Positions 43,334 through 58,304 of a DNA stretch of 60,553 nt are shown here, piece by piece. Made by a program: the position numbers and the translations under genes. How positions within the stretch are numbered: the first letter of the stretch is position 1; each line of letters starts with the position of its first letter. Source of the DNA: Flavobacteriales bacterium (lineage in GTDB: Bacteria > Bacteroidota > Bacteroidia > Flavobacteriales_F > PHOS-HE28); NCBI GenBank assembly GCA_016787995.1, contig JAEUTB010000197.1:1-60553 (forward strand), read 5' to 3'. The notes under the pieces are model-generated. The model was not told the DNA's origin, ran no database searches, and saw only the letters and a program-made list of their open reading frames with translations.

Positions 43334-43530
43334 GTCTGGTCGTTGCTACAGACCGCGAAGGTAGCAGGGAGTGATGAGAAGATCGGATGATCAGAAAATG
43401 GCTGACCGGGATGATGTAAGGAACGAGCCGGCAGGGAAGATCGTGATGCCGTTAATCCGTCCCTCCTACCAGAGGACCGCTCAACCATGTCTTGCTTCCG
43501 GCAGGATCACGGTCACCCTTCCTTCGCGTC

Positions 43531-45113: not shown

Positions 45114-45386
45114 ATGAATAAGGCCTTCAAAGCCCTCAACGATCCCACGCGTCGACGCATCCTGGAGCTCCTTCGGCAACAGGACATGACGGCGGGTGAT
45201 ATCGCGGAGGAGTTCGACATGAGCTTCCCCAGCATCAGCCACCACCTTGACCTGTTGCGCCAAGCCGGACTGGTAACCTCGATGAAGGAAGGCCAGTTCG
45301 TGCGGTACTCCTTGAACACTACCGTGATGGACGAGCTGATCGGATGGATGCTGGCCTTGAAGACACCACCGGAACGCAAACGATGA
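45114..45386 (+). CDS. sdpR: SdpR-family ArsR-type autorepressor
   Basis: FKALNDPTRRRILELL...DMTAGDIAEEFDMSFPSISHHLDLLRQAGLV...GQFVRYSLNTTV is highly characteristic of the SdpR subfamily. Confidence 0.85.
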   Translation: MNKAFKALNDPTRRRILELLRQQDMTAGDIAEEFDMSFPSISHHLDLLRQAGLVTSMKEGQFVRYSLNTTVMDELIGWMLALKTPPERKR

Positions 45387-46060: not shown

Positions 46061-46809
46061 AAAACAAGAAGTTCCTCCTCGGATCGCTCATCTTCCTGCT
46101 CGGTGTGGTCGGTGTGCTGAGCCTGCTCACCAGCGACCTCCCAATGGATAGCCTGCCAGCGTTGGTGCGGGAGCGCTTCACCGAAACACAGATCAAGCTG
46201 TTGGTCCTCCTCAATCCTGTGATGCTGGTGTTGATCATGGTGTGCATAGGTACGCCGCTGCATGAACGGGCCGGCCTGAAGGTTCCAGCACTCATGGGCT
46301 GGTTACAGGGCACTCCGGTGGGATCGGTATTCGCCGGTCAAGTGAAGGCTGGTGTCGTGTTCGGCGCCCTGGCCGGTGTGTTGCTCGTAGGCATTTCGTT
46401 CACCTTCGGAGATGCCATCGCCGCCGATCAGGAGAAACTCGCGACCGGCATCAAGCCCTCATTGCTGGCGCGCTTCCTCTATGGCGGCATCACCGAAGAG
46501 ATACTGGTCCGCTTCGGCATGATGACCTTGGTGATGTGGCTGGCACTTAAAGTGCTCCCCTCCACCGCTGCTGCCTGGACGAGCATAGCGTTGACCTCGC
46601 TCCTCTTCGGCCTCGGGCATTTGCCGGCGGTGTTCGCTGTCATTCCCGAACCGAGTACCATTCTCTACGCCTACATCCTTTTGGGGAACATTGCGGGCGG
46701 GATCGTCTTCGGTTGGCTCTATTGGAAGAAGGGATTGGAAGCTGCGATGATCGGGCATGCCATGGCTCATGTGGTCATGGTAAGTGCAGAGCGACTGCTT
46801 CCCGGGTGA
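46057..46809 (+). CDS. CPBP family intramembrane glutamic endopeptidase (CAAX protease/bacteriocin-processing type)
   Basis: EEILVRFG (EExxxR), LLFGLGHL (FxxxH) and a C-terminal His motif (IGHAMAHVV). ATGA overlap with sdpI. Confidence 0.85.
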   Translation: MKNKKFLLGSLIFLLGVVGVLSLLTSDLPMDSLPALVRERFTETQIKLLVLLNPVMLVLIMVCIGTPLHERAGLKVPALMGWLQGTPVGSVFAGQVKAGVVFGALAGVLLVGISFTFGDAIAADQEKLATGIKPSLLARFLYGGITEEILVRFGMMTLVMWLALKVLPSTAAAWTSIALTSLLFGLGHLPAVFAVIPEPSTILYAYILLGNIAGGIVFGWLYWKKGLEAAMIGHAMAHVVMVSAERLLPG

Positions 46810-46831: not shown

Positions 46832-47218
46832 TCAGAAATTCTGCAGTCCCCAAACGTTGAAGCCGTGGACGAGCGTAGCCGGTACCAGGCTCTTCGTCCG
46901 GTAGGTGATATAGCCCCACATCAACCCGAGCGGCAGGATGCTGACCCCACACTTTAGGGCTTCGTAATGTTCAATGCGCTCGGGTCGGCGCACTGGGTTC
47001 TTCTACTTCATGGGGAACCACTGAGCGAACAGGTCGATGATGAACGCGCAAACCAGCATGGCGCCAAGGTAGGCTAGTGCCTTTGGCAGCTCCTCGTGCC
47101 GAATGGCGAGTTCCAGCAAACCGGCCACACAGAGGAGGCTGCCCAGTTCGGTCCACGGGTGTCGGCGCACCGCATTCCACTAAATGCGCAGAACGTCCAT
47201 GGCGGGCGTCATGATCAT
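46832..47218 (-). pseudogene. Degenerate CPBP-like membrane protein remnant with two in-frame TAG codons
   Basis: My own minus-strand translation of one frame gives MIMTPAMDVLRI*WNAVRRHPWTELGSLLCVAGLLELAIRHEELPKALAYLGAMLVCAFIIDLFAQWFPMK*KNPVRRPERIEHYEALKCGVSILPLGLMWGYITYRTKSLVPATLVHGFNVWGLQNF*. It has TM-like segments and a CPBP-like C-terminus. Stops lie at 47180..47182 and 47003..47005. Confidence 0.35.
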
Positions 47219-47257
47219 ATGTATCTGATCTCCTTCAGTTCTGGGCTGAATGAGGGA

Positions 47258-47288
47258 CCATGTTCTCACGCGTTCCTATAGAACATGG
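47258..47288 (-). terminator. Hairpin downstream of yaaA (possible terminator)
   Basis: ccatgttct-(13 nt)-agaacatgg is a perfect 9-bp stem. There is no U-run, so the call is weak. Confidence 0.3.
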
Positions 47289-47333
47289 ATGGTCGCACAC
47301 AAAGGCCACGATCGGCCGCTGTGGATTCCGGCA

Positions 47334-48146
47334 CTACCGCACCCGTCCACCTTGAAGCTTCTTCGTTACCAAGGGCGGCCGCCTATCGCGCAGGAACACC
47401 CATTTCTCCAGTGTGCTCTCTTCTGATGAGAACCGGTAACCATCGCCCGAATAGCCTTTGATGCCTTCCGGCTCCAGGATGCGGTGTTGAATGATGTACC
47501 GTGCCAAAGCACCACGCTGATTCTTCACATACGTCTGCAAGGGTTTATAGACCCCTCCTACTTTGTCCTTGAATTCCGGCGTGATCACCCTGGCCTTCAA
47601 CAGGTCGGGTTTCACAGCTCGGAAGTACTCGGTGCTCGCGCAGTTGATCACCACACTGGACTTGCTGGCTTTGAGGTCGGCATTCAACACCTCGGTGATA
47701 CGGTCGCCCCAGAACGAGTACAAGTTGCGGGCCTTGCCGATCCCGAACGGTGTGCCCATCATCAATCGGTAGTCCTGCATCAGGTCCAGCGGACGTAGCA
47801 CGCCGTAAAGGCCACTAAGGATGCGGAGGTGGTGCTGTGCGAACCGCAGATCATCGGGAGATAAGGACCGCGCTTCCAACCCCCTGTACACTTCACCATT
47901 GAACGTGAACACCGCCGGTCGGGCGTTCTTCGATGTGAATGGTGCGTTCCATCGGGTATAACGGTCGCGGTTGAGTTCGCCGAGCTTCTCACTTAGGTCC
48001 ATCATCTCGGCGAGTTTCTTCGCGCTCAGGGTCTTCAACTTTCCCACCAGGGTTTCCGCTTCCTTCAGCAAGGCTGGTTGGGTGGTCCCGGCCATGGTCG
48101 GTGTCTCTTGAGCCAGATCCTTAGCTGGCGATAACAGTATCAGCAT
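47334..48146 (-). CDS. yaaA: Peroxide stress protein YaaA (DUF328)
   Basis: MLILLSPAKDL ... FTFNGEVYRGL ... LRILSGLYGVLRPLD match the canonical YaaA motifs. Confidence 0.9.
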   Translation of the reverse strand: MLILLSPAKDLAQETPTMAGTTQPALLKEAETLVGKLKTLSAKKLAEMMDLSEKLGELNRDRYTRWNAPFTSKNARPAVFTFNGEVYRGLEARSLSPDDLRFAQHHLRILSGLYGVLRPLDLMQDYRLMMGTPFGIGKARNLYSFWGDRITEVLNADLKASKSSVVINCASTEYFRAVKPDLLKARVITPEFKDKVGGVYKPLQTYVKNQRGALARYIIQHRILEPEGIKGYSGDGYRFSSEESTLEKWVFLRDRRPPLVTKKLQGGRVR

Positions 48147-48228
48147 GGCCGAAAGGTATAAGCCTGCCTAACTGGGTACATCGGTTCCAAGCAGTTCCTA
48201 TCCAAGCAGTGGTGGACGTGTTGCACGC

Positions 48229-48747
48229 TTAGGCTGGGCTATTCCAATGCGGTCCATCACTCTTGAACACGGACACGAGCGCATCCATGCTATCGCACCA
48301 CCCGCCCACATGACTGTCGCGTGAAGCGACTGTGGCGAGACCGGTCTGCCGGAACTCCAACCGCGTGCGCGTGCCTTCTTCGTGTAGGTCCACGGTGACC
48401 AACGTGTGATGGTGGGCCGGGTTCACCGGCACCGGCGGCTTCTCCCACTGGTGCGTGAAGGCTAGGTGACCAATGGGCTTCACAGCGGTGTACGTGCCGT
48501 AGATCGGGATGTCTTCGCCGTCCGGGGTGCGCAACACCACGCGGTATTGACCGCCCTCGCGCACGTCGGCCTCGGCTTGCACCGTGTTGAACGCCGCGCA
48601 GCCGAACCAGTGTAGGAGCATCGCGGGGGTCGTCCAGGCTTTCCAAACCAGCTCGCGCGGCGCGTCGAACACCCGCGTGATGCGGATCTCGTCCGGAGCA
48701 GGTGTAACGACGTTGTTGCGGAGGTGTTGGGCGGTGATCGTCTCCAT
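48229..48747 (-). CDS. SRPBCC superfamily protein, AHSA1 (Aha1-like) type, paralogue 7
   Basis: IRITRVFDAPRELVWKAWTTPAMLLHWFG. ATG at 48747. Confidence 0.85.
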   Translation of the reverse strand: METITAQHLRNNVVTPAPDEIRITRVFDAPRELVWKAWTTPAMLLHWFGCAAFNTVQAEADVREGGQYRVVLRTPDGEDIPIYGTYTAVKPIGHLAFTHQWEKPPVPVNPAHHHTLVTVDLHEEGTRTRLEFRQTGLATVASRDSHVGGWCDSMDALVSVFKSDGPHWNSPA

Positions 48748-48793
48748 ACCCGCGAAGGTAGGATCAGACCACTCCAATTTCGTTGGCCTCGAT

Positions 48794-49855
48794 CTACAAC
48801 CCGAGGAACGTTCTGTAGCGACCGATCTCCTGGTTCACCGCTTTCTTCACGGGTGAACTCAAGGCTCCGAAGGGCGATACCAACACATCTCCTGCATTGG
48901 CCGGGCTATCCCAGGTGCCCGCCACGCGACCATCGATCACCATCATGTGGCGCAGGGATCCGGCAGTGCTTCTTGGAGCAGAGGCCACCGTGGAAGGATC
49001 ATGGATCAGCCGTCGATCCTTGAAACCGATGGCGTACTCATCGTAGTTCGGCAAGAGGCGCGCCGTGTGCTTCGGCAGCGGCACGGGTTCAGCCTCACGC
49101 GGCATCCGGTAGGCGCGGTCGTCGATCATCACTTCCGCGAATTCCTTGCCCAGTGCGGCCATCGCCTTCTTACCATCGCTCACTGTAAGTCCACTCCACC
49201 ATGCGAAGTCGTGCAGCGTAGCGGGGCCACGTGTGCGGAAGTAGCGGCGGGCGAGCTCGAGCAAGGCCTCCTCCTTGGCCATGGCCTTGGCTTTCGGTAC
49301 GCGCTCTTCGAGCAGCATGTAGGTGAATTGTTTGCCGTTGCGCGGCCCGCTGCACAAAAGTCCGGTCAGTTCGGCATCCATCAGCAGATGGATCAAGCGC
49401 ATCTCCGACACGTCGATCCGCGCGCGTTGCAAGGCGGTTGACAGGGCGGTGCGATCCAAGGCTCTTGCGCCGGTGAGTTCCCGCTCGAACACCTTGTTGG
49501 CTCTTCGAAAATGCACCGGTTCCAATCCGAGCTTGCGGTACATGGTGCCGTTGAAGCGCTGCACGCGATGGCCGGTGAGCAGCAACAGCCAGCGCAGATC
49601 CTCTGCAGCGACGAAGTGCCAGGTCGGGCGCAGCAGGTGTGTACGTATAAGTTCGCCGGTGTTGAAGGCAGATCCTACCTCCACGGCATTACTGCCTGTC
49701 CGCTGCCCCACGGCCCATAGCGCGCCGTAGAAATCCTGTGCTTGGACAGCGGCCAATTCACCCACGAGTTCCTGCGGCGTCCGCGCCGAATGCGCGATCA
49801 ACTGCTGAGCCTTGAGGCGAACTCCGAGGGCTTCGGATGCGGTCCACCGTTCCAT
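48794..49855 (-). CDS. YcaQ/AlkZ family winged-helix DNA glycosylase (interstrand-crosslink unhooking family)
   Basis: LAAVQAQDF near the N-terminus and LLRPTWHFV. The length and overall pattern fit the DUF1006/HTH_42 family. Confidence 0.82.
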   Translation of the reverse strand: MERWTASEALGVRLKAQQLIAHSARTPQELVGELAAVQAQDFYGALWAVGQRTGSNAVEVGSAFNTGELIRTHLLRPTWHFVAAEDLRWLLLLTGHRVQRFNGTMYRKLGLEPVHFRRANKVFERELTGARALDRTALSTALQRARIDVSEMRLIHLLMDAELTGLLCSGPRNGKQFTYMLLEERVPKAKAMAKEEALLELARRYFRTRGPATLHDFAWWSGLTVSDGKKAMAALGKEFAEVMIDDRAYRMPREAEPVPLPKHTARLLPNYDEYAIGFKDRRLIHDPSTVASAPRSTAGSLRHMMVIDGRVAGTWDSPANAGDVLVSPFGALSSPVKKAVNQEIGRYRTFLGL

Positions 49856-49865
49856 TGCCGAGCGC

Positions 49866-50243
49866 TCACCTGCTTTTCTCCACGATGCTCTGGAACCCGC
49901 CGAACGCCATGCGCTTGTGATCGAAGATGGGCGTCTTCATCTGCTCGCGGTACATCTTGTCCATGCGCGGATCGGCCATCACCTTCTTGTTCACTTGGTC
50001 GCGGTGCTTGCGGTTCTTGTACACGATGTAGGAGAACAGCACCGTTTCATCGGGCTTGCATTTCGCGGCCTTGTGGAACGGGTAGAACATGCCCTCGTGG
50101 TCCAGGTCATCGCCCACGCATTCCATGTACCGCAAGGCGCCGTGGTCCATCCAGACCTTGCTTGCGGCCGTTGCCAGCTTCTTGTAGCGCGCCAGGTTCT
50201 TCTTGGGAATGGCGATCATGAATCCGTCGATGTAGCTTGCCAT
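49866..50243 (-). CDS. DUF1428 family protein
   Basis: MASYIDGFMIAIPKKNLARYKKLA ... GALRYMEC is typical of DUF1428. Confidence 0.85.
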   Translation of the reverse strand: MASYIDGFMIAIPKKNLARYKKLATAASKVWMDHGALRYMECVGDDLDHEGMFYPFHKAAKCKPDETVLFSYIVYKNRKHRDQVNKKVMADPRMDKMYREQMKTPIFDHKRMAFGGFQSIVEKSR

Positions 50244-50256
50244 GTGAACGTGTGGG

Positions 50257-50784
50257 TTAGTGTTTCTCGGCTTGTGTTTTCAATCCGGCCAGACCGCTGT
50301 CGAAGTCTTTGCCGATCATCTTGTCCATGGAAATGAACAGGCCCATGAGCTTCCCCATGAAGAGGTTCGGCCCATCCATGGTCCAACGAACGGTGGTGGC
50401 CGGGCCCTGCGGCGTGAACTGGAAATGCGTGATGCACGCGTTCTTGAAGGGCCGCACGAAACGCAGGTCGATCTTCACCCCGTTGGTGCTGGCTTCCAGG
50501 ATCTCCATGGTGCCTTCACCAGCTTTGTTGTTCCCGCTCCATGCGTATTTGGCGCCTACGCCTTGCGCTGCGCCGAGGTAGTCGCGCTTCATGATCGGGT
50601 CCAGTTTCTCCCACGGGCTCCAAGGTTGCCACTTGTGGAAGTCGACGATGTGCGGCAGGATGCGCTCGGGCGGTGCGTTGATCACCGTGCTGCGCTCGTA
50701 GTGGACGGTATCCGGTTTCATGGACGCCACGATGAGGATGCCGGCGATGAGGACGGCAAGGCCGAGAAGGATATAGAGTAGCAT
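50257..50784 (-). CDS. Membrane-anchored SRPBCC (polyketide cyclase/START-like) protein
   Basis: N-terminal TM (LLYILLGLAVLIAGILIVA), then INAPPERILPHIVDFHKWQPWSPW. ATG at 50784. Confidence 0.8.
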   Translation of the reverse strand: MLLYILLGLAVLIAGILIVASMKPDTVHYERSTVINAPPERILPHIVDFHKWQPWSPWEKLDPIMKRDYLGAAQGVGAKYAWSGNNKAGEGTMEILEASTNGVKIDLRFVRPFKNACITHFQFTPQGPATTVRWTMDGPNLFMGKLMGLFISMDKMIGKDFDSGLAGLKTQAEKH

Positions 50785-50791
50785 GGTGCGT

Positions 50792-51169
50792 TCAGTTTGC
50801 GGGTTTGAGACGCTTGTGGTGAAGGACATACGCCCACACCAGGAAGGCAACGAACAGGAGCATGGGCGCCACCGAAGCGACCGGATCACCAACAGCGATG
50901 AAGGAGATGATGGCTGCGACCAGGTCGATGAAGAAACCGAAGTAGGCCCACTCTTTTACCCGGGCCGGTACCATGGGCAGCAGTATGGCGATGGCGCCGA
51001 CCACCTTGGCCCACGAGACCAGCTGAATGAAGTAGAGCGGGTACCCAAGGTGGTCGTGGAGCATGGCCACGGCTTCGGGCATCAGCGTGATGCCGCCGAA
51101 GGAGGAGAAGAGCATGAACGCGCTGAACAGCGCGGTGACGATCCAGTAGGTGATGTTGAGCTTTTTCAT
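50792..51169 (-). CDS. DoxX family membrane protein
   Basis: 125 aa with four TM segments, including YWIVTALFSAFMLFSSFGG and LVSWAKVVGAIAILLP. Confidence 0.8.
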   Translation of the reverse strand: MKKLNITYWIVTALFSAFMLFSSFGGITLMPEAVAMLHDHLGYPLYFIQLVSWAKVVGAIAILLPMVPARVKEWAYFGFFIDLVAAIISFIAVGDPVASVAPMLLFVAFLVWAYVLHHKRLKPAN

Positions 51170-51219
51170 GGGGTTTGAGGGCGTTCGTTGGGGGCGTCCA
51201 GTCGCGCGTTTGGTCGTTG

Positions 51220-51239
51220 GGGCCGATCATGATCGGCCC
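51220..51239. repeat. Perfect 20-bp palindrome gggccgatca|tgatcggccc spanning a stop codon
   Basis: Read directly. It contains two GATC sites and overlaps the TGA of the SRPBCC gene at 51227. Confidence 0.9.
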
Positions 51240-51658
51240 GTACAAAGTGCTTTCAGTTTGTCCATGTTCTCCTCGTTCGCCTTGGAGATGAATTCCCGGA
51301 TGGGCGCGAGTTCTTCTGCGGAGTCGAACCGCATGATCCAATCGATGCGGGTTCCTTCTGGCTCCTCGGTGAACGTGATCATGGCCTTGTAGAAGTGCAA
51401 TTCTTTCAGGTGGTCGAATTCCAGGTAGCCCTGCGGTTCGATGCGTTTGAAGACGCAGGTGTTGTGGAAGTCGCCCGGTGGCCCGTGCATGGTGAACTCC
51501 CAGATGCCCTCGGGTTCCAGCTCGAAGCGATGGAAGGTGTTGGTGAAGCCGTGTGGTCCCCACCAGCGCGCGAGTTGCTCGGGATCGGTCCAGGCGGCGA
51601 AGACGCTCTCGCGGTCGGCGTTGATCACTCGGGTTGTATGTACTTCCCGGTCGGTCAT
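51227..51658 (-). CDS. SRPBCC superfamily protein, AHSA1 type, paralogue 5
   Basis: TTRVINADRESVFAAWTDPEQLARWWGPHGF. ATG at 51658 overlaps the upstream stop (ATGA). Confidence 0.85.
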   Translation of the reverse strand: MTDREVHTTRVINADRESVFAAWTDPEQLARWWGPHGFTNTFHRFELEPEGIWEFTMHGPPGDFHNTCVFKRIEPQGYLEFDHLKELHFYKAMITFTEEPEGTRIDWIMRFDSAEELAPIREFISKANEENMDKLKALCTGRS

Positions 51659-52374
51659 TTCTTCTTCGCGGCTTTCTTGGCCGCCTTCTTGGTTGCGGTC
51701 TTCTTTGGCTTCGCGGGCCATCGCACCTCGATCTCCGCCATCTTCATCTTCACGATGTCCTTGACCAACGCGGCGGGCAACGGCTTCTCCGGCGTGAACT
51801 GGATGGTGCCCTTGCTCACGGCGAAGTCCTTCAGTCGGTCCTTGAATCCGACTGGCACTGAGCCGTAGAGCGCGACGTGGTTCTTCGCCGTGCCCAAATA
51901 CAGCATCGGATGATCATTGTACTTGAATCCGGGAAGACCATAGCCGAAGTGCTCCGTGCAACCCGGCGCAGTCGCGAGGATCTGCTTGCGCAAGGTCTGC
52001 AACGCCTTTTGCTGAGAGGCCGGCAGTTGCGCCAGGTAGTCGTCCGTGTTCGTCGGCTTTTTGGGAAGGTCGCGCATGGTCTTGGTCGTGCGTTGTTTGA
52101 GTTGAAGTCCAGCATGTGAGAGTTCGTTCCGCAGGATCGGCAAGCTGGCCGGGCCGAAACCGTGGAGGGCCAGCAGTTCCTTTTCCTTGTGATCCGAAAG
52201 TTCGCCGAGCGTGCGGATACCCGCGCCTTCCAAGGCCCGTCGAGCCGGTGCGCTCAGCTTGGCCATCCAGCCACCTTGCGGAGCCTTCATCGCCTCGCAT
52301 TGCGGACAGGTCGGACAGTCGCTAGATTTCACGAAGCGATGACCGTTGGAACAGGTGCGCTCGGACTTCATCAT
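51655..52374 (-). CDS. Fusion protein: Cys4 zinc-ribbon + helix-hairpin-helix (RNAP alpha-CTD-like) + DUF1801
   Basis: CSNGH...CPTCPQC, then LSAPARRALEGAGIRTLGELSDHKEKELLALHGFGP, then a DUF1801 core (HFGYGLPGFKYNDHPMLYLGTAKNHVALYG). Confidence 0.78.
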   Translation of the reverse strand: MMKSERTCSNGHRFVKSSDCPTCPQCEAMKAPQGGWMAKLSAPARRALEGAGIRTLGELSDHKEKELLALHGFGPASLPILRNELSHAGLQLKQRTTKTMRDLPKKPTNTDDYLAQLPASQQKALQTLRKQILATAPGCTEHFGYGLPGFKYNDHPMLYLGTAKNHVALYGSVPVGFKDRLKDFAVSKGTIQFTPEKPLPAALVKDIVKMKMAEIEVRWPAKPKKTATKKAAKKAAKKK

Positions 52375-52378
52375 CTGA

Positions 52379-52405
52379 TCATCTCATTATCTGATCAACT
52401 GATCA
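52379..52405. repeat. GATC-rich repeat copy A
   Basis: The sequence is tcatctcattatctgatcaactgatca. It matches copy B at 26 of 27 positions and lies between the VOC stop and the DUF1801-fusion start. Confidence 0.9.
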
Positions 52406-52813
52406 CCCTTGCACTGCCTTCTGATCCATCCAGAACACTTCCCAGATGTGGCCGTCGAGGTCGTTGAAACTGCGGCTGTACATGAAGCCGTGGTCGTCCG
52501 CTGGGCGGCATTCGGTTGCTCCGCCCGCGATCGCCTTATTGTAGGCGGCTTCCACCGCATCGCGACTGTCCACGGAGAAGGCCAGCAGCACCTCCGTGTG
52601 CTTGGTGGCATCCGCGGCCGCCTTGCTCGGCGGCAGGAAGCGCTTGATGCTCGTGGGCGTGTGCAGCATGCAGTAGATGGTGTCGCTGATCACCAGGCAC
52701 GCGGCATCGTCGTTGGTGAACTGCATGTTGAAGGTCCAGCCGAGCTGTTGGAAAAAGCTCATGCTGCGTTTCAGGTCGCTCACGACCATGTTGATGAAGA
52801 TCTGGGTAGGCAT
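52403..52813 (-). CDS. VOC (glyoxalase/bleomycin-resistance/dioxygenase) family protein
   Basis: FINMVVSDLKRSMSFFQQLGW ... DLDGHIWEVFW. Confidence 0.85.
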   Translation of the reverse strand: MPTQIFINMVVSDLKRSMSFFQQLGWTFNMQFTNDDAACLVISDTIYCMLHTPTSIKRFLPPSKAAADATKHTEVLLAFSVDSRDAVEAAYNKAIAGGATECRPADDHGFMYSRSFNDLDGHIWEVFWMDQKAVQG

Positions 52814-52840
52814 GGGTAGTTGGATGTTCGTTGTGGGTTG

Positions 52841-53293
52841 TTAGTCGGCGCCGATGTTCTCCGCCAATCCGATCAGCAGTCCCTCGCAGCCGCGGATGTA
52901 GCAGAGCCGGTAGGTGTTCTCGTACTGCATGATCTCACCAACGAGCTCGGCGCCGTGCTCCTGTAGTTTGGCCACCATGCCATCGAGGTTCTCCACGTTG
53001 AACATGATGCGCATGTAGCCGAGCGCGTTCACCGGTGCCGCGCGGTGGTCAGCGATGACGGCCGGCTTGTGGTATTGGCAGATCTCCAAGCGGCTGTGGC
53101 CATCCGGCGTCACCATCATCGCGATCTCCACCGATTGGTCACCGAGTCCGGTCACACGGCCGGCCCATTCGCCTTCGACCATCCCGCGGCCTTCCAGTTT
53201 CAACCCGAGCACGGAGAAGAAGCTGATGGCGGCGTCGAGCGACTCGACGACGATGCCCATGTTGTGCATGTAACGGAGCTTGGGACTTGCCAT
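52841..53293 (-). CDS. VOC family protein
   Basis: HNMGIVVESLDAAISFFSVLGLKLEG ... IEICQY ... GLLIGLAE. ATG at 53293. Confidence 0.85.
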   Translation of the reverse strand: MASPKLRYMHNMGIVVESLDAAISFFSVLGLKLEGRGMVEGEWAGRVTGLGDQSVEIAMMVTPDGHSRLEICQYHKPAVIADHRAAPVNALGYMRIMFNVENLDGMVAKLQEHGAELVGEIMQYENTYRLCYIRGCEGLLIGLAENIGAD

Positions 53294-53301
53294 GGTTCGG
53301 A

Positions 53302-53772
53302 TCAAGTGTGTTGGGTAGCAATGAACAGGAGAAGGCGGTCCAAGCACTCGTTCCAACCGACGCTGTGCTCCTCGCAATGTGGCACGGTGGCGAACGTGGT
53401 TTGATTGAGTGTCAGCACGGTGGAAGCGCCGCGTTCTTCCAGGGTGATGGCCACCACGGTATCACACCAGATGTCGCCATCGTTGTCCTCGCGTAGCCAG
53501 GTGAAGACCAGTCGTGCCGGCGCATCGATGTGCGTGTACTCGCCGCGCACCCAATGGTCACTGCCATCGGGCGCTCGCATGCAGAAGCGGTATTTGCCGC
53601 CCACGCGGAAGTCCTGCTCGCAATGGGGAAGGGTGAAATCCGTCGGGCCCCACCATCGCACCAGATGCTTCGGGTGCGTCCACGCCTCGAATACGCGCTC
53701 ACGCGGTGCGTTCAGGGTGCGTGTTAGCACCAGTGTGCGTTGGTCGATGTCGGGTGCGATCTCCATGGTCAT
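53302..53772 (-). CDS. SRPBCC superfamily protein, AHSA1 type, paralogue 4
   Basis: LVLTRTLNAPRERVFEAWTHPKHLVRWWGPTDF. ATGA overlap with the upstream gene. Confidence 0.85.
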   Translation of the reverse strand: MTMEIAPDIDQRTLVLTRTLNAPRERVFEAWTHPKHLVRWWGPTDFTLPHCEQDFRVGGKYRFCMRAPDGSDHWVRGEYTHIDAPARLVFTWLREDNDGDIWCDTVVAITLEERGASTVLTLNQTTFATVPHCEEHSVGWNECLDRLLLFIATQHT

Positions 53773-54497
53773 TTCTTTTTAGCAGCGCGCTTCGCATCGC
53801 GTTTCCTGGTGCGCTCCGCGATCATGGGACGCTGGATATCGCGCAGCACATCCTTGCCAACCCAGCGCTCGGTCTTGTCAGTGCTGGCGGCCAGGCGCTC
53901 AGCGACGTCCAGAGCGGCTTCACGACAGGCCACGCTGCGCGATCCCATGCTGCGTAGAGCCCAGCTCACAGCCTTCTTCACGAAGTTGCGCTCGTCGTTC
54001 GCCGCCTTCTCGCAGAGCGGGAGCAGGGCGAGGTAGGGCCCATCAGGACCGTTCTTGTCATGCAAGGCCAGTCCCGCGAGCAAAGCGAACGCTGCACGTT
54101 TCTCGAACTCCGGCTTCCGCTTGGCCCACTGCTTCACCTTGGCGATGGCGTGCGGGGTTTTGTCGAAGAGCAGGAAGCACGCCGTGTCGCAATCGGCCCA
54201 ATTCCGGAAGTCGGCGCACCAGGCATCCATTTGGGCGGGCGTCACCTGCTTGGGATCGGCGATGTGCGTGGCCAAGGCTTTTGCTTCGTGCCAACCTGTG
54301 GCCCACAGCAGCGTGGCCAATTCGTGGTCCTTGCCGATGGTCTTAGCCAGTTTCTGCACGTCCGGCATCGACGTACCGAAGGCTAGGTCGGTGTGGATCG
54401 CGAAACGCGCCGACAACTGGTCACGGTATCGCTTCGTACCGTGCGCCTCCAGCCACTGGAGCGCCGCCTTCAAATCCGCATCACGCTTCTTCGCCAT
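53769..54497 (-). CDS. DNA alkylation repair protein (AlkD/AlkC-like HEAT-repeat family)
   Basis: LWATGWHEAKALA ... NFVKKAVSWALRSMG matches the pattern of the DNA_alkylation family. Confidence 0.82.
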   Translation of the reverse strand: MAKKRDADLKAALQWLEAHGTKRYRDQLSARFAIHTDLAFGTSMPDVQKLAKTIGKDHELATLLWATGWHEAKALATHIADPKQVTPAQMDAWCADFRNWADCDTACFLLFDKTPHAIAKVKQWAKRKPEFEKRAAFALLAGLALHDKNGPDGPYLALLPLCEKAANDERNFVKKAVSWALRSMGSRSVACREAALDVAERLAASTDKTERWVGKDVLRDIQRPMIAERTRKRDAKRAAKKK

Positions 54498-54501
54498 CGG
54501 T

Positions 54502-54536
54502 TCATCTCATTATCTGATCGACTGATCATCTGATCC
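54502..54536. repeat. GATC-rich repeat copy B
   Basis: The sequence is tcatctcattatctgatcgactgatcatctgatcc, with three CTGATC units. It lies between the GyrI-like stop and the alkD-like start. Confidence 0.9.
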
Positions 54537-54998
54537 TTACCCCACGATCCAGTTCAGTTCCGTCTTGTAGTCCTTCGGATCCTTCACCTCGTCCGGGTTG
54601 GTGAGATAGGCCTCCCAGAACTTGCCGTTCTCGCCGTGGCCATTCTCGCGCACCCATTTCTGCAAGGCGGGCCACGCTTGCGCCAGACCTTCGTAGGGAC
54701 CCGTGTACACGCTTCGTACGACATTGACTGCGGGCAGCTTGCTGTTGATCACGCGCCCTTCCTCCTTGATCGCTTTCGATACCGGGAATCCGATCTCGAA
54801 ATCGAAGGTGTCGCTCGGACGGCGATGGTGGTAGGAGAACATCGGACCGGCGATCTGGATGCCCTGACCGGTGAGTGTCTTGATGATCTCCTGGATCGCG
54901 GGATCCATGTATTTGGGCATGTCGCGGCCGGGGATCACGAGCGGGATCGCAGCGGTGATGACCTCCTTGGTGGTGATGACTTCGGGTGTGCTGATCAT
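54537..54998 (-). CDS. GyrI-like small-molecule-binding domain protein
   Basis: The pattern of a duplicated beta-alpha-beta-beta module (FEIGFPV ... VYTGPYEGLAQAW ... WEAYL) fits the GyrI-like/SbmC fold. Confidence 0.82.
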   Translation of the reverse strand: MISTPEVITTKEVITAAIPLVIPGRDMPKYMDPAIQEIIKTLTGQGIQIAGPMFSYHHRRPSDTFDFEIGFPVSKAIKEEGRVINSKLPAVNVVRSVYTGPYEGLAQAWPALQKWVRENGHGENGKFWEAYLTNPDEVKDPKDYKTELNWIVG

Positions 54999-55019
54999 GG
55001 TTGAGGAATTAGAGGATGA

Positions 55020-55084
55020 GATGATCAGTAGATCAGATGATGCACAGCATTCTCTGATCCTCTGATCATCTAATTATCTGATCG
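55020..55084. repeat. GATC-rich repeat copy C, including an 18-bp-arm hairpin
   Basis: The arms gatgatcagtagatcaga (55020..55037) and tctgatcctctgatcatc (55053..55070) pair at 16 of 18 positions. The core tcatctaattatctgatcg (55066..55084) matches copy B at 18 of 19. Confidence 0.9.
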
Positions 55085-55472
55085 TGGTTATCCAAGCCCC
55101 GATGATGGCTTGCAGCGCCTTCTGTTTCGTTTTGATGTCGGTCGAGTCCTTGAAGGTGATCTGCCCGCGGTCGTTGCCGAGCCATTTGATCAGGCTTTGC
55201 GGATCGGCGATGCGATCCTTCAAAACGATGCCTTTCGCTTTGGCGCCCGCGTGCAGGATGATCATCGGTTCCTTGATGTGTTTCGGGCCGTTCAGCGTAG
55301 CGAACCACTCACCGGTCTTGAAGCTCGCCGTGTTCCACTTCACGCCTTCCTCGATCGACTTGTCTACGCCCAGAATGATGGTGCGCAACTGATCGATCTC
55401 CCTCCGCAAAGGATGCTTGTTCGCATCCAGCAAGGCGCTCACGACGGGGTCGAACCGAACCATGGAACTCAC
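55074..55472 (-). CDS. DUF1801 family protein
   Basis: NKHPLRREIDQLRTIILG ... IKWLGNDRGQITFKD is YdhG/DUF1801-like. Confidence 0.78.
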   Translation of the reverse strand: MSSMVRFDPVVSALLDANKHPLRREIDQLRTIILGVDKSIEEGVKWNTASFKTGEWFATLNGPKHIKEPMIILHAGAKAKGIVLKDRIADPQSLIKWLGNDRGQITFKDSTDIKTKQKALQAIIGAWITTIR

Positions 55473-55888
55473 TGTTTTTCAGCGTAAGCCTTGAAACGAT
55501 CGAGGATCGCCTGCCAGCCGCCGCGCTGCATCTCCACGGGATTCTGCGATTCGGCATCGAAGGATTCCGCCACGCGGGTGCCACCGTTCTCTTCGGTGAA
55601 AAGGATCTCACAGCTGCGGCCATCGGCCATGGTGTAGGCGATGCGCTTGTGCGTTTGCACATCGTCGTACACGCCTTCGAAGTCGAAGCTGAAACTGCCG
55701 TCGCGGGCGGCCATCGTGCTGCTGAACTTGCCACCGGTGCGCAGGTCGTTCTCCGCTTTGGGGCAGTGCCAGTCATCCGTGGCGGCGTTCCATTGCATGA
55801 TGTGCTTCGGGTCGGTCCAGGTGTTCCATACGTCCGCCACGGGTTTGTTCACGAGTGCGGAGACGGTGATGCGGGTCATGGTGCTCAT
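55469..55888 (-). CDS. SRPBCC superfamily protein, AHSA1 type, paralogue 3
   Basis: ITVSALVNKPVADVWNTWTDPKHIMQW. ATGA overlap with the downstream DUF1801 gene. Confidence 0.85.
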   Translation of the reverse strand: MSTMTRITVSALVNKPVADVWNTWTDPKHIMQWNAATDDWHCPKAENDLRTGGKFSSTMAARDGSFSFDFEGVYDDVQTHKRIAYTMADGRSCEILFTEENGGTRVAESFDAESQNPVEMQRGGWQAILDRFKAYAEKQ

Positions 55889-55919
55889 GGTCTTGGTTCG
55901 TTGGGGTTGATGTGCGGGA

Positions 55920-56315
55920 CTAGTCGATGGCTTCGATGCCTTGTTGCCGCAGGCGCTCGATGTTGTCTTTCATGGCTTGCAACTGTTCCGGCGCGTGCCC
56001 TTTCCATTCCGCCACCTCACCGAGGACACGCAAGGCAGCCTTGGTGCGATAGGACTTGGTGGGGTTCCCGGGGAACTTCTTGTCCGTCAGGTTCGGGTCG
56101 TCCTCGTAGGTGCCCGTGGGCTCCACGATGTAGATGCGTTCGCGACCATCACCTGCGGCCAGTTCAGCACCCCAGATCGCCGCATCCAGCGTTGCGCTGA
56201 AGTACACGTGGTTCGCTGCTTTCCGTTGGCCGTAGTTGGAACTGTAGCCCGGTGCGAGCGAATCGCCAATGCGGAGATCGGCCCTGGTGCCGTGGTAGAA
56301 CGTTTCTTTTTCCAT
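55920..56315 (-). CDS. arr: NAD(+)-rifamycin ADP-ribosyltransferase (Arr family)
   Basis: FYHGTRADLRIGDSLAPGYSSNY ... HVYFSATLDAAIWGAELA ... RIYIVEPTGTYEDDPNLTDKKFPGNPTKSYR match Arr signatures almost throughout its 131 aa. Confidence 0.9.
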   Translation of the reverse strand: MEKETFYHGTRADLRIGDSLAPGYSSNYGQRKAANHVYFSATLDAAIWGAELAAGDGRERIYIVEPTGTYEDDPNLTDKKFPGNPTKSYRTKAALRVLGEVAEWKGHAPEQLQAMKDNIERLRQQGIEAID

Positions 56316-56330
56316 GGGTGATGGTAAAAG

Positions 56331-56831
56331 CTACTTGCTGGTAGTAAGCAGTTCGTCCAGTTGATCCAGCCCCATCGTGAATCCTTCCTTGAAGCCCATG
56401 GCCACGATCTGTTCGAGGTCTTGCGCTGAAGCGAAGTGCAGAAGAACGCGGACCACGGTGCGCCCATCGGACGCGTTGAAGTGCGCTTCCCAGGTCACTT
56501 TCGGTTTGATGGTGTTCGCCACACCGTGCTCATCGCAGAACGCGTCGCTGCCGGAGAAGTACGACTTGGGCCGGATGGTCGCGTAATCGAAATAGCACCA
56601 GTGCCGATCGCCTTGCGGGCCTTGCATGTAGTAGAGCCAGCGTCCGCCCTCGCGGAAGTCCAGCGACTTGATCACGCACTCGTAGGGTCGTGGTGCCCAC
56701 CATTTGCAGAGGACCTCAGCCTCCGTCCATGCGGCCCACACGGGATCGAGCGGTGCGTTGAAGGAGCGCTCCACCGTGATGGAATTCGCGTCCTTCTCCA
56801 CGATGAAATTGAAGAGGGCCTGTTGGGTCAT
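56331..56831 (-). CDS. SRPBCC superfamily protein, AHSA1 type, paralogue 2
   Basis: ITVERSFNAPLDPVWAAWTEAEVLCKWWAPRPY. Confidence 0.85.
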   Translation of the reverse strand: MTQQALFNFIVEKDANSITVERSFNAPLDPVWAAWTEAEVLCKWWAPRPYECVIKSLDFREGGRWLYYMQGPQGDRHWCYFDYATIRPKSYFSGSDAFCDEHGVANTIKPKVTWEAHFNASDGRTVVRVLLHFASAQDLEQIVAMGFKEGFTMGLDQLDELLTTSK

Positions 56832-56834
56832 GGC

Positions 56835-57308
56835 TCAGCGTGTTGGTTGTTTTTGAACGTATTCAGAAAGGCGCGTCAGGGTCTGTTTGCCGCCCTCGGC
56901 CGCGCCGTAGTTCTCGATCGCTTGATCACGCACGTCCTTCGATTGGAACACATTGTGAAGTGTCACCAGCGTGCCGCCTTCCACATCGGTGAAACTGAGC
57001 GAGCCGGTGAACATTTTCGGGTTCTCCCAGTCGCCGTGGTCGTACGCCAGCCGGTCCATCGGCGTGACTTCCGTGTAGGTGATCAGATTGGGCCAGACCT
57101 TCCCATCGGGCCCCGTCATGGTGTATTTCCATACCCCGCCCACGCGCAGGTCGTGCGCGATGGTCTTGTTGGCAAATCCGTTAGGACCCCACCATTGGTC
57201 GATGTGCTTCGGCTCGGTACACGCCATCCACACCAAGGCACGCGGCGCTTTCACCACGCGCGTGATCTCGATCCCGCGATCGCCCACCAGCTTACTTGTT
57301 GCTTCCAT
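56835..57308 (-). CDS. SRPBCC superfamily protein, AHSA1 type, paralogue 1
   Basis: IEITRVVKAPRALVWMACTEPKHIDQWWGPNGF. The start overlaps the arsR-type gene by 17 nt. Confidence 0.85.
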   Translation of the reverse strand: MEATSKLVGDRGIEITRVVKAPRALVWMACTEPKHIDQWWGPNGFANKTIAHDLRVGGVWKYTMTGPDGKVWPNLITYTEVTPMDRLAYDHGDWENPKMFTGSLSFTDVEGGTLVTLHNVFQSKDVRDQAIENYGAAEGGKQTLTRLSEYVQKQPTR

Positions 57309-57669
57309 TCTTCTTGCGTTTGGGCGTTGCCTTCACCGGTGCCGGTTTCTCCTGCGCTTGCAGTTCCTTCAGGTATTCCTCCAGCCGGTCGAAGCGCTCT
57401 TCCCAGAACTGGCGGTACTGCTCCATCCAATCCGTGGCTTCCTTCAGCGGTGCCGCCTTGATCTCGCATGGCCGCCATTGCGCCTCTTTGCCACGGGCGA
57501 TCAGCTGTGCGCGCTCGAGCACCTTCAAGTGTTTGCTCACAGCGGGCAGGCTCATGCTGAAGGGCGCAGCCAGTTCGTTCACCGAAGCCGGACCGCTCGA
57601 AAGCCGCGCCAGAATGGCCCTGCGCGTGGGGTCGGCAAGAGCGGAGAAGGTGAGCGAGAGGCGGTCCAT
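57292..57669 (-). CDS. ArsR/SmtB family transcriptional regulator (first gene of the super-operon)
   Basis: FSALADPTRRAILARLSSGPASVNELAAPFSMSLPAVSKHLKVLERAQLI is a winged-HTH of ArsR type. A C-terminal helical extension is common in SRPBCC-associated ArsR proteins. Confidence 0.9.
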   Translation of the reverse strand: MDRLSLTFSALADPTRRAILARLSSGPASVNELAAPFSMSLPAVSKHLKVLERAQLIARGKEAQWRPCEIKAAPLKEATDWMEQYRQFWEERFDRLEEYLKELQAQEKPAPVKATPKRKKNGSNK

Positions 57670-57692
57670 GGACGTGTTGAGTGGGCAAACAT

Positions 57693-57712
57693 AATTAACC
57701 GTTCAGTTAAAT
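57693..57712. promoter_or_regulatory. Inverted repeat aaTTAAC-cgttca-GTTAAat in the arsR/osmC divergent region (putative ArsR operator)
   Basis: Read directly. A perfect 5-bp core (6 of 7 when extended) lies 24 nt upstream of the arsR-type ATG. Confidence 0.4.
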
Positions 57713-57836
57713 ACAAATTCCCTCGTTCTTCTTTACTGATGGTATCTGGATGGCACCCGTCCGGTCGAAGTGGGTCACGGACCTATCTGCGGCAACGGCA
57801 GGGACTACCTTCGCACCTTAACCAGATAGAGACATC

Positions 57837-58277
57837 ATGGCCATCAACCGCAAAGCGACCGCCACTTGGAAAGGGACCGGCAAAGAAGGAGCCGGGAGTG
57901 TAACCACCATGAGCGGTGCATTGAACGACCTACCCCACTCTTTCCTCACGCGTTTCGTCAGTGAGGATGGCAAGGCCGGCACCAATCCCGAGGAATTGAT
58001 CGCCGCGGCACACGCGAGTTGTTTCACCATGAAGTTGAGCTTCGTGTTAAACGCGGCTGGCTTCACCGCGGACAACTTGGAATGCACCGCCACCGTGAAA
58101 ATGGACAAGGTGGGTGATGGCATGGGCGTAGTCGGCATTCACCTGGATCTGAAAGGCACGGTACCAGGTATCACCGCGGAAAAGTTCAAGTCCTGCGCAG
58201 AGGAAGCGAAGGCCAATTGCCCCATCAGCCAGTTGCTTAAGAGCGTGCCCATCACAATGAGCGCAGTGCTCGCTTAG
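57837..58277 (+). CDS. osmC: OsmC family peroxiredoxin
   Basis: TATWKGTGKEGAGSV ... NPEELIAAAHASCFTM ... ANCPISQ match canonical OsmC. Confidence 0.9.
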   Translation: MAINRKATATWKGTGKEGAGSVTTMSGALNDLPHSFLTRFVSEDGKAGTNPEELIAAAHASCFTMKLSFVLNAAGFTADNLECTATVKMDKVGDGMGVVGIHLDLKGTVPGITAEKFKSCAEEAKANCPISQLLKSVPITMSAVLA

Positions 58278-58304
58278 GTTCCGCGCGTTCCTACCCTATC
58301 CGGA

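Follow-up and report, generated by a model that had tools for sequence, protein, structure and literature searches.

What could hold seven SRPBCC proteins, a rifamycin-modifying enzyme and two putative DNA glycosylases together behind a single ArsR-type repressor gene? The question is raised by the 60,553-nucleotide (nt) contig JAEUTB010000197.1 (GCA_016787995.1), hereafter the window, from an uncultured high-GC Flavobacteriales bacterium of sewage or activated sludge, whose Ffh is 85–90% identical to those of activated-sludge metagenome-assembled genomes. Its minus strand, on which the operon region is read here, carries an array of 18 genes, for which a first-pass annotation had proposed a genotoxin-defence island. 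Of that proposal, the protein families and co-localisation stood, but the AlkD-like, AlkZ-like and Arr genes, whose products keep their catalytic residues, proved to be variable add-ons. Judged from sequence comparison, and with a probability of roughly 0.6, the locus is a lineage-expanded form of a pan-bacterial ArsR–AHSA1/SRPBCC stress module against toxic small molecules.

The 18 open reading frames (ORFs) run from 57669 down to 48229 and are followed by yaaA. In the ORF listing all of them are co-directional and placed as described before, and in profile hidden Markov model searches the family assigned to each of the 18 proteins and to YaaA scored above the curated Pfam gathering score. 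From the 57669 end, the Pfam order is ArsR, AHSA1, AHSA1, Arr-ms, AHSA1, DUF1801, GyrI-like, DNA_alkylation, AHSA1, Glyoxalase, Glyoxalase with a Ble-like N-terminus, a Cys-rich/HhH/DUF1801 fusion, AHSA1, DoxX_2, Polyketide_cyc2 with a hydrophobic N-terminal helix, DUF1428, AlkZ-like and AHSA1, and then YaaA. If each gene begins at its most plausible start codon, the lengths of the 17 internal junctions are -17, 3, 15, 31, -4, 75, 39, -4, 8, 27, 28, -4, 57, 7, 13, 10 and 46 nt, with 82 nt to yaaA; 13 of the 17 overlap or are ≤31 nt, and the remaining four are 39, 46, 57 and 75 nt. The range of 3–46 nt reported initially fits most junctions but not DUF1801-to-GyrI (75 nt) and SRPBCC-to-DoxX (57 nt). 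As had also been stated, no biosynthetic genes were found in the 60-kb window.

The ArsR/SmtB-family repressor at the head of the array (57292..57669, minus strand; 125 aa; Pfam HTH_20 53.8 bits, HTH_5 43.2 bits) has orthologues of 61–78% identity in Myxococcota, Alpha- and Betaproteobacteria, Cyanobacteria, Chloroflexota, Acidobacteriota, Actinomycetota, Planctomycetota and other phyla. The 80 best orthologue loci, from >10 phyla, were compared, with genes labelled by tblastn and by a Pfam census of the unlabelled ORFs. In 77 of them the next gene downstream, on the same strand, encodes an SRPBCC protein; 2–7 SRPBCC genes are often present, and in most phyla the module is just ArsR and 1–3 SRPBCC genes. 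Across phyla the SRPBCC gene typically begins before the ArsR stop (median about -11 nt), and in the window SRPBCC-a (AHSA1, 157 aa, 56835..57308, minus; Pfam 89 bits) overlaps the ArsR stop by 17 nt. Three apparent ArsR::SRPBCC read-throughs among the 80 loci lie in different frames and are not fusions; the claim that such fusions exist goes back to a single source, Radauer 2008.

This core was already described in 2009 as a widespread two-gene module, ArsR–COG3832 (Aha1 family), with 259–280 occurrences (Makarova, Wolf and Koonin, 2009; PMC2701414). The head of the window array, a non-metal ArsR gene directly upstream of, co-directional with and conserved beside an AHSA1 gene, belongs to it. 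The distribution of the module is patchy, multi-copy and toxin–antitoxin (TA)-like, enriched on chromosomes, rare on plasmids and not reported from phages, and antibiotic resistance was judged its likeliest role (PMC2701414). ArsR–AHSA1 operons were noted in a Frankia genome paper, with the link 'not elucidated', and a 2026 review of bacterial START proteins leaves the ArsR link unmentioned; the core is thus known yet functionally unsolved.

The original alternative for ArsR–COG3832 was a TA-like or purely regulatory module, with SRPBCC proteins as toxins or regulators and ArsR as the antitoxin. It draws on the distribution just described, on the translational coupling of ArsR and SRPBCC together with ArsR autoregulation, and on the listing of Rv2035–Rv2034 as one of the TA modules with the strongest induction in persisters of M. 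tuberculosis. However, the S. maltophilia COG3832 protein was non-toxic in E. coli and in its own host, and a kill-rescue test of a COG3832–ArsR pair was negative (PMC7650669). Enrichment on chromosomes with rarity on plasmids and no report from phages also argues against this alternative, and an operon of 18 genes with up to seven divergent SRPBCC paralogues plus enzymes is unlike a two-gene addiction module or type II TA system, so that we regard it as very improbable here.

A second possibility follows from the family name of the regulator, namely a metal- or metalloid-responsive regulon with CadI-like VOC proteins and metal-binding SRPBCCs. ArsR/SmtB membership, a match to the NCBIfam 'metalloregulator' subfamily (HTH_metalloreg, 81.5 bits, cut-off 55) and the metalloregulator annotation in public records would suggest it. 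Sequence inspection of ArsR, however, found neither an α3 CxC pair nor an α5 Asp/His/His/Glu site. The only Cys of the protein is C68, located in the wing, and the only His is H47, part of the recognition helix; the position of ELCVCDL reads ASVNELA, and the nearest structure, 3F6O, is an uncharacterised protein. The COG3832-linked ArsR subfamily lacks metal motifs (Makarova 2009, PMC2701414), Rv2034 of M. tuberculosis does not respond to any of seven metals (PMC3338718), and the operon contains no transporter, reductase or metallochaperone. A metal-sensor reading of ArsR is ruled out by sequence and literature together, and a metal regulon at large is highly unlikely.

The regulatory region of the array was then considered. 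A sigma-70 promoter scan gave no match, as expected for Bacteroidota, and the TTTG/TAnnTTTG motif was used in its place. It identified a Bacteroidota-type promoter upstream of ArsR (57686..57717, minus; -33 TTTG, 20 nt, -7 TATGTTTG), the sole TTTG-N17-23-TAnnTTTG match on the coding strand of 47200–57800 even with one mismatch allowed. The layout is repeated in 6 of 7 related loci; in L081 (L numbers denote the compared loci) the -7 box is kept, with no TTTG at -33. The probable ArsR operator is an 8-N4-8 palindrome, ATTTAACT-GAAC-GGTTAATT (57693..57712, minus), which matches the cross-phylum palindrome ATTTAACC-N4-GGTTAAAT at 14 of 16 positions. The repeat noted earlier at 57693–57712, which reads ATTTAACTGAACGGTTAATT, is real, and it is the sole such site in the 60-kb window. 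Counted at a match of at least 13/16 and ≤150 nt upstream of the ArsR orthologue, the palindrome was present in 63 of 77 loci from >10 phyla, and in 5 of 7883 control windows from the same loci. The window copy is placed between the -33 and -7 boxes, and in seven Flavobacteriales relatives the palindrome precedes the -7 TAnnTTTG. That there is one such ArsR, and that an operator-like palindrome marks the one promoter that could be recognised, agrees with the single ArsR-type regulator proposed in the first-pass annotation.

At the other end, a terminator-like hairpin (GGCCGATCGTGGCC then TTTGTGTG; 47304–47317, minus strand) directly follows the yaaA stop and is the only terminator-like hairpin of the coding strand that is not within a gene, consistent with a transcription unit that ends after yaaA. 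YaaA, of the peroxide-stress protein family (47334..48146, minus; Pfam 271 bits), is encoded downstream of SRPBCC-g and is possibly co-transcribed with the operon, though outside the conserved array; yaaA adjoins the array only in the window, L081–L083 and L252.

Co-transcription of the 18 genes from the ArsR promoter, which we consider probable, has to be weighed against the absence of any functional unit, that is, a co-directional 'parking lot' of accessory genes, each expressed independently at a permissive site, where ArsR would control no more than its own gene and the first SRPBCC. The four longer spacers would suit this explanation, as would a strong hairpin that divides the head of the array from its body. 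The hairpin (55003..55083, minus; minimum free energy -33.1 kcal/mol, z = -4.8) lies in the DUF1801-to-GyrI spacer, consists of GATCAG repeats without a U-tract and has no match in Rfam, which gave nothing meaningful across the operon. It is formed by two inverted copies of an 18-nt motif, GATCAGATAAT(G/T)AGATGA, that occurs three times (52379–52396, 54502–54519 and 55066–83, minus strand; 0.04 expected by chance), each copy lying in a longer operon spacer within GATCAG repeat clusters spaced about 8 nt. Similar motifs are located at the same junctions in L081, L246, L248, L211 and others, and the hairpin is gone where the spacer is short. The motif and hairpin could represent a repetitive extragenic palindrome (REP)-like element, a site for the processing or stabilisation of RNA, or an array of binding sites. 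The sequence TACCTT(C/T)(G/C) stands 4–5 nt before the ATG of SRPBCC-g and of yaaA (48748–48770 and 48147–48170), and its equivalent at L250:12925–12945 is a perfect -7 box, TACCTTTG; these sites, none of which showed a properly spaced -33 box, could be weak internal promoters for leaderless transcripts. Against independent expression, most junctions overlap or are ≤31 nt and leave no room for a promoter, and within the array no promoter-like or terminator-like element rises above chance.

Comparison within the lineage, covering about 20 related Flavobacteriales contigs mostly from activated sludge, bears on the same issue. The consensus order, in which square brackets mark genes present in some versions and missing in others, is ArsR-SRPa-SRPb-[Arr]-SRPc-(SRP)-DUF1801-GyrI-[AlkD-like]-[YdeI/OmdA]-SRPd in the 5' part and [VOC1]-VOC2-Zn/HhH/DUF1801-SRPe-DoxX-TM-SRPf-[DUF1428]-[AlkZ-like]-SRPg in the 3' part, TM standing for transmembrane. 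A shared backbone of ArsR, SRPBCCs, GyrI-like, VOC, DoxX and TM-SRPBCC keeps its order over the ~20 contigs at 60–97% protein identity, which supports the claim that the neighbourhood is conserved in relatives; Arr, AlkD-like, AlkZ-like, DUF1428, VOC1, YdeI and PhnB are variable cassettes. The natural variants span 7 to 18 genes, and the minimal version (L277/L278, ArsR 81% identical to that of the window), ArsR-AHSA1-GyrI-SRPd-VOC2-TM-SRPf-DoxX, defines the lineage core.

Cassette turnover is seen down to the strain level. Arr occupies the same slot in the window, L272, L246, L250 and L252 and another slot in L170, and is absent from L081, L211, L254, L256, L257 and L273–278; the AlkD-like gene is found in 12 versions and missing from at least 6. 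L273 and L274, with identical ArsR proteins, differ by a block of alpha/beta-hydrolase, DUF1801, AlkD-like and DUF4287 genes. Over 16.7 kb L081 and the window share 99.7% identity, in a block that ends at window position 55458, but L081 has a different operon head, with an ArsR gene of 88% nt identity, no Arr, no SRPa, an extra AHSA1 and another upstream flank. The AlkZ-like gene occurs only in the species of the window, as a clean 1.1-kb insert holding that gene alone, and in L272 (~90% nt identical over the operon), which has no AlkZ-like gene, the DUF1428 stop and the SRPg leader are about 10 nt apart. No integrase, attC site or insertion sequence element was found as a means of cassette insertion. 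The operon grows and shrinks by single-gene insertion and loss at intergenic spacers, and the backbone would thereby act as a regulated landing pad for resistance genes.

The variable content, even with identical ArsR proteins, would also be expected of a collection of independent genes, as would the brevity of the module in most phyla. The AlkZ-like gene, a recent insertion, points the same way: in 80 loci of AlkZ homologues elsewhere, with 10 kb inspected on each flank, the other operon genes were absent with one exception (L017), where an unrelated ArsR–SRPBCC pair lies ~8 kb from the AlkZ homologue on the opposite strand, so that the AlkZ linkage is not conserved. However, the conserved backbone order, insertions that are always in the same orientation and within the operon, and SRPBCC::GyrI and AHSA1::DUF1801 fusions that join neighbouring genes are hard to reconcile with unrelated genes at a permissive site, and we consider that explanation unlikely.

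To what the module responds may be approached from its companions in other phyla. Among 147 unlabelled ORFs interleaved in the 80 cross-phylum arrays, the Pfam census recovered Glyoxalase/VOC (15 ORFs, plus 5 Glyoxalase_6), DUF899 (12 ORFs), PhnB-like 3-dmu-9_3-mt (11 ORFs), DoxX_2 and DoxX (8 and 2 ORFs), RibD_C (7 ORFs), YCII (3 ORFs) and PNPOx (3 ORFs), and tblastn added DUF1428 in 10 loci, TM-SRPBCC in 14 and DUF1801 in 7. No Arr or AlkZ homologue was present outside Flavobacteriales in these 80 loci, and the only AlkD-like homologue outside Bacteroidota, in L223, lies upstream on the opposite strand. The first-pass annotation had suggested a survey for co-occurrence of the array with alkD, ycaQ and arr; outside the Flavobacteriales lineage, no array held Arr or a glycosylase. 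The census indicated that the VOC, DoxX, DUF1428, DUF1801 and TM-SRPBCC genes of the window belong to a recurrent guild, and that Arr, AlkD-like and AlkZ-like are lineage-specific recruits.

Such a guild would also be compatible with a general electrophile, quinone or redox-stress regulon, in which ArsR senses through Cys68, the VOC, DoxX, SRPBCC and DUF proteins detoxify or buffer quinone-like compounds, and Arr and the glycosylases are opportunistic passengers. No repair enzymes occur among the cross-phylum companions VOC, DUF899, PhnB-like, DoxX, RibD_C, PNPOx and YCII, the single Cys is kept in 74 of 81 ArsR orthologues, and the operon is bordered by stress genes (OsmC on the upstream side, YaaA on the downstream side; Usp–OsmC in L273). 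QsrR and YodB detect quinones when a single Cys becomes S-alkylated, and they govern regulons with VOC dioxygenases in which rifampicin and fluoroquinolone resistance goes up (PMC6798810). On the other hand, the window operon contains no quinone reductase, nitroreductase or azoreductase, nothing in a PDB search marks its VOC proteins as ring-cleavage dioxygenases, and the OsmC/YaaA neighbours are not conserved, L081 and L272 having GH18 upstream. The repeated recruitment of Arr and AlkD-like genes in the lineage, moreover, argues for antibiotic or genotoxin selection. As a separate explanation a redox regulon seems doubtful, and it overlaps the stress-module reading instead of opposing it.

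The three recruited enzymes look active, with catalytic residues intact. Arr, an NAD+–rifampin ADP-ribosyltransferase of 131 aa (55920..56315, minus; Pfam Arr-ms 167 bits), scores 221 bits with the NCBIfam equivalog rifampin_ARR (NF033144), whose cut-off is 130. Its alignment with Arr-ms 2HW2 is full-length (171 bits, about 60% identity judged by eye), and the catalytic residues H19, Y49 and D84 (Arr-ms numbering) are conserved.

The AlkD-like protein (53769..54497, minus; 242 aa) is a HEAT-like-repeat protein of the DNA_alkylation (AlkD/AlkF) family (PF08713, 96.9 bits, cut-off 21). In a profile of 57 homologues its W100, D104 and R134, which are invariant, and W179, nearly so, align with W109, D113, R148 and W187 of AlkD; in the B. 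cereus enzyme W109, D113 and W187, together with R148, are the catalytic residues. phmmer found AlkF only (3ZBO/1T06, E ~1e-7), AlkD remaining unmatched even at E up to 10. AlkF lacks equivalents of the W, R and W of the AlkD set, and the family profile scores AlkF at 87 bits and AlkD at 38 bits. The AlkD assignment made initially holds for the fold, and the AlkD catalytic residues are kept, but by overall sequence the nearest protein is AlkF, a non-glycosylase; glycosylase activity is plausible from the residues.

The AlkZ-like (HTH_42) glycosylase homologue (48794..49855, minus; 353 aa; PF06224 199.9 bits, profile 2–329 of 329) aligned over its full length to AlkZ 5UUJ, with AVQAQD over GVQAQV. 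Its Q-A-Q motif is of the AZL type, (Q/H)-phi-Q, and not of the Q-phi-D type of YcaQ and other YQL proteins (PMC9040887). AZL genes are known in or next to genotoxin biosynthetic gene clusters (BGCs), a context that the window, without biosynthetic genes, does not offer, and most Streptomyces AZL genes lie outside BGCs (PMC9040887). In a set of 185,579 species-representative genomes, identity to the best homologues reaches no more than 47%, and these belong to Anaerolineales and Gemmatimonadaceae instead of Bacteroidota, which suggests horizontal acquisition from an unsampled donor. The GC content at third codon positions of the gene is 0.73, at the low end of the operon range of 0.73–0.88.

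The SRPBCC proteins are the most numerous products of the operon, six AHSA1 (PF08327) and one N-terminally TM-anchored Polyketide_cyc2 (PF10604). Their pairwise identities of 21–44% indicate old paralogues, not recent duplicates. Besides SRPBCC-a, the AHSA1 members, all on the minus strand and assigned by Pfam, are SRPBCC-b (166 aa, 56331..56831), which is kept in relatives; SRPBCC-c (139 aa, 55469..55888), which is fused in frame to GyrI-like in L170; SRPBCC-d (156 aa, 53302..53772; 111 bits), of the lineage core; SRPBCC-e (143 aa, 51227..51658), whose ATG overlaps the upstream stop by 4 nt and whose L081 gene call is also 143 aa; and SRPBCC-g (172 aa, 48229..48747; 95 bits), the last gene of the array and terminal in most relatives. 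SRPBCC-d is of the type that most often adjoins ArsR across phyla, being the best tblastn label in most cross-phylum loci. SRPBCC-f (175 aa, 50257..50784, minus), the TM-anchored Polyketide_cyc2 protein with the hydrophobic N-terminus MLLYILLGLAVLIAGILIVASM, belongs to the lineage core and is the member with homologues in 14 of the 80 cross-phylum arrays. The close solved structures are structural-genomics entries without assigned function, bar a weak match of SRPBCC-d to CalU16 (E 3.7e-6), which uncharacterised AHSA1 structures outscore; SRPBCC-a did not match CalU16 in the solved-structure search. CalC and CalU16 are enediyne self-sacrifice proteins (PMC6804068).

The GyrI-like protein of the lineage core (54537..54998, minus; 153 aa; PF06445 45.5 bits, cut-off 26) had been discussed as a cyclopropane-alkylator hydrolase or SbmC type. 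Its nearest structures are 9RTM and 9RTL ('AraC effector-binding domain-containing protein', E 5.5e-21 and 1.4e-18), the polyspecific drug binder CTR107 (5KAX/3E0H/2KCU, E ~1e-19) and the effector domain of the multidrug sensor EcmrR. No cyclopropanoid hydrolase of the YtkR7/C10R5/Lin2189 type was among its solved-structure matches, and a role as drug binder is likelier than one as cyclopropanoid hydrolase or gyrase inhibitor. Nor did the PDB search favour bleomycin- or mitomycin-binding for the two VOC/glyoxalase-fold proteins, as it returned only uncharacterised structures. VOC1 (52841..53293, minus; 150 aa from an internal ATG; Pfam Glyoxalase_4/Glyoxalase) is variable, occurring in the window, L081, L272 and L276, and in L255 outside the array context. 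VOC2 (52403..52813, minus; 136 aa), with a Ble-like N-terminus and nearest structure 4GYM, is lineage core, and its relatives are 69–79% identical.

The other small proteins of the operon, likewise assigned by Pfam and encoded on the minus strand, are a YdhG-like DUF1801 protein (55074..55472; 132 aa), a Cys-rich (Zn-ribbon-like)/HhH (RNA polymerase alpha-CTD-like)/DUF1801 fusion (51655..52374; 239 aa; DUF1801 plus RNA_pol_A_CTD, with NCBIfam PRK07758 covering residues 3–93), the DoxX_2 membrane protein of the lineage core (50792..51169; 125 aa) and a variable DUF1428 protein (49866..50243; 125 aa; 124 bits), which in the lineage is found only in the window, L081, L272 and L250. Several of these genes are fused in relatives: AHSA1::GyrI-like (303 aa, L170:11392–12303), AHSA1::DUF1801 as a single ORF (324–333 aa, L272:12263–13264 and L276:12017–12991) and AHSA1-AHSA1 (324 aa, L273:10362–11336). 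The SRPBCC::GyrI-like and AHSA1::DUF1801 fusions link the binders functionally and suggest that the small binding proteins physically cooperate, with the caveat that some fusions might be gene-calling or sequencing artefacts.

Taken as a stress module, the locus would work as follows. An ArsR dimer most likely sits on ATTTAACT-N4-GGTTAATT between the -33 and -7 boxes and would repress its own gene and the 17 closely packed ones downstream. A hydrophobic or electrophilic xenobiotic probably lifts the repression, plausibly either by modification of Cys68 or through ligand binding by the translationally coupled SRPBCC partner. The seven SRPBCCs, the CTR107-like GyrI protein, the two VOC proteins, DUF1801 and DUF1428 would then bind or sequester the compound, with DoxX and the TM-anchored SRPBCC forming a membrane-associated layer, and the plug-in enzymes would deal with defined targets: Arr with rifamycins, the AlkD-type protein with bulky or cationic alkyl-purine lesions, and the AZL-type AlkZ-like protein with crosslinks or bulky N7-guanine adducts. 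The capture of Arr and two glycosylases is evidence, from gene context, for a role of the module in defence against toxic small molecules.

Several observations weigh against this interpretation. The DNA-repair genes and Arr are limited to one Flavobacteriales lineage and dispensable there, the nearest solved relative of the AlkD-like protein, AlkF, is without glycosylase activity, and the cross-phylum companions fit general electrophile, quinone or redox stress at least as well as genotoxins. Seven of the 81 ArsR orthologues do not have the Cys, and no bacterial AHSA1 of this type has a proven ligand, >15 structural-genomics entries being 'uncharacterized'. As for a single transcript, there are the four spacers of 39–75 nt, one with the strong hairpin; host promoters are also often off-consensus, with just 6 TAnnTTTG sites in 60 kb, which leaves room for internal promoters.

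A more far-reaching version of the mechanism is possible, and we put it forward only tentatively. The ArsR of this subfamily would itself lack a ligand site, and the coupled SRPBCC would be the receptor, whose ligand-loaded form binds or releases ArsR and so switches ATTTAACC-N4-GGTTAAAT. Arrays of SRPBCC paralogues would widen the range of chemicals sensed or soaked up, and the operon, in >10 phyla, would serve as a landing pad for genes such as Arr, AlkD-like and AlkZ-like. Its logic would be similar to that of the plant PYR/PYL START-domain receptors or of TA-style conditional autoregulation. If true, one of the largest bacterial protein families still lacking characterisation would gain its first function, and a pan-bacterial regulon for xenobiotic sensing would be defined.

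The surroundings of the operon were also inspected. Divergently upstream of ArsR are OsmC, SelU (tRNA 2-selenouridine synthase) and SelD (57837–60361, plus strand), an arrangement shared, with an additional Usp gene, by L273–275; in L081 and L272 this flank is GH18/GH92. The differing upstream flanks point to a rearrangement or recombination breakpoint at the operon head. Just beyond yaaA, at 45114–46809 (plus strand), a second, unrelated ArsR/SdpR-like HTH gene (~90 aa) is followed by an SdpI/DUF1648 membrane protein (45344–46060) and an Rce1-like CPBP protease (46057–46809), a set that resembles an SdpR–SdpI-type toxin-immunity signalling module. Between ffh and this set lie more small genes of the stress or detoxification kind, for DinB_2 (41241–41786, minus), a zinc-type alcohol dehydrogenase (43492–44496, plus) and DUF4440 (44548–45033, plus), named by Pfam labels transferred from the L081 annotation.

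ArsR-paired bacterial AHSA1/SRPBCC proteins number in the thousands and have >15 structural-genomics structures, with their function still missing. The locus renders the 17-year-old question of what ArsR-linked AHSA1 proteins do, and the guess of antibiotic resistance, directly testable. A guilt-by-association handle comes from enzymes of known target, a rifamycin ADP-ribosyltransferase and two glycosylases for alkyl-DNA or crosslinks, whose catalytic residues are intact; the precise cross-phylum operator can be used for regulon prediction, and the natural 7–18-gene variants with and without Arr, AlkD and AlkZ allow comparison. The locus also illustrates an environmental route by which arr-type genes are captured into a regulated chromosomal operon of wastewater bacteria without integron machinery. 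In the literature searched, the cross-phylum operator, the cassette turnover and the recruitment of Arr and glycosylases had no earlier description.

Among known systems, integron cassette arrays are similar in being made of co-directional, promoter-proximal small accessory genes with strain-level gain and loss, and Arr genes are classic integron cassettes. The array differs in its conserved backbone order, in lacking integrase and attC, and in spacers too short for attC. Neither in the window nor in L081 is the array adjoined by an integrase, an integron/attC origin of Arr is rejected because its spacers are 15 and 31 nt, and an integron cassette array is ruled out by internal spacers of -17 to 75 nt and the lack of an adjacent integrase. 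The self-resistance sets of actinomycete BGCs (AlkZ/AZL, YtkR2/AlkD, YtkR7, VOC, CalC/CalU16) combine the same protein families, namely an HTH_42 glycosylase with (Q/H)-phi-Q, the AlkD-type W/D/R/W set, GyrI-like, VOC and the SRPBCC superfamily. In contrast, the window has no BGC and a Flavobacteriales host, its genes form one operon under ArsR, its GyrI-like protein is CTR107-like and not YtkR7-like, and the glycosylases are dispensable in the lineage.

The MhqR/QsrR/YodB regulons of Firmicutes share with the locus an autoregulated repressor, a palindromic operator and VOC-fold detoxification genes. Their derepression raises resistance to quinone-like antimicrobials including rifampicin, and QsrR and YodB sense through a single Cys (PMC6798810). 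The repressors are of the MarR/DUF24 type and not ArsR, however, the window lacks their reductases and they lack SRPBCC arrays, so that the likeness is a functional analogy, not homology.

Rv2034–Rv2035–Rv2036 of M. tuberculosis is similar by its published description: Rv2034 is a metal-blind ArsR autorepressor that needs its single Cys and recognises, in its own promoter, two inverted half-sites 4 nt apart; it heads an overlapping operon whose next gene encodes the SRPBCC protein Rv2035 (PMC3338718). The system differs in its half-site (CCGTAAGT vs. ATTTAACC), in having three genes, and in the proposed roles, which are lipid, hypoxia or dosR regulation. The ArsR–COG3832 two-gene module (PMC2701414), of which the window head, with its non-metal ArsR upstream of a co-directional AHSA1 gene, is a member, was described as a strict two-gene unit with no operator reported, whereas in the window 17 genes follow ArsR, including seven SRPBCC genes and three enzymes with defined targets. 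Compared with these systems, the locus is a strongly expanded, cassette-capturing form of the ArsR–COG3832 module, with nothing mechanistically surprising yet.

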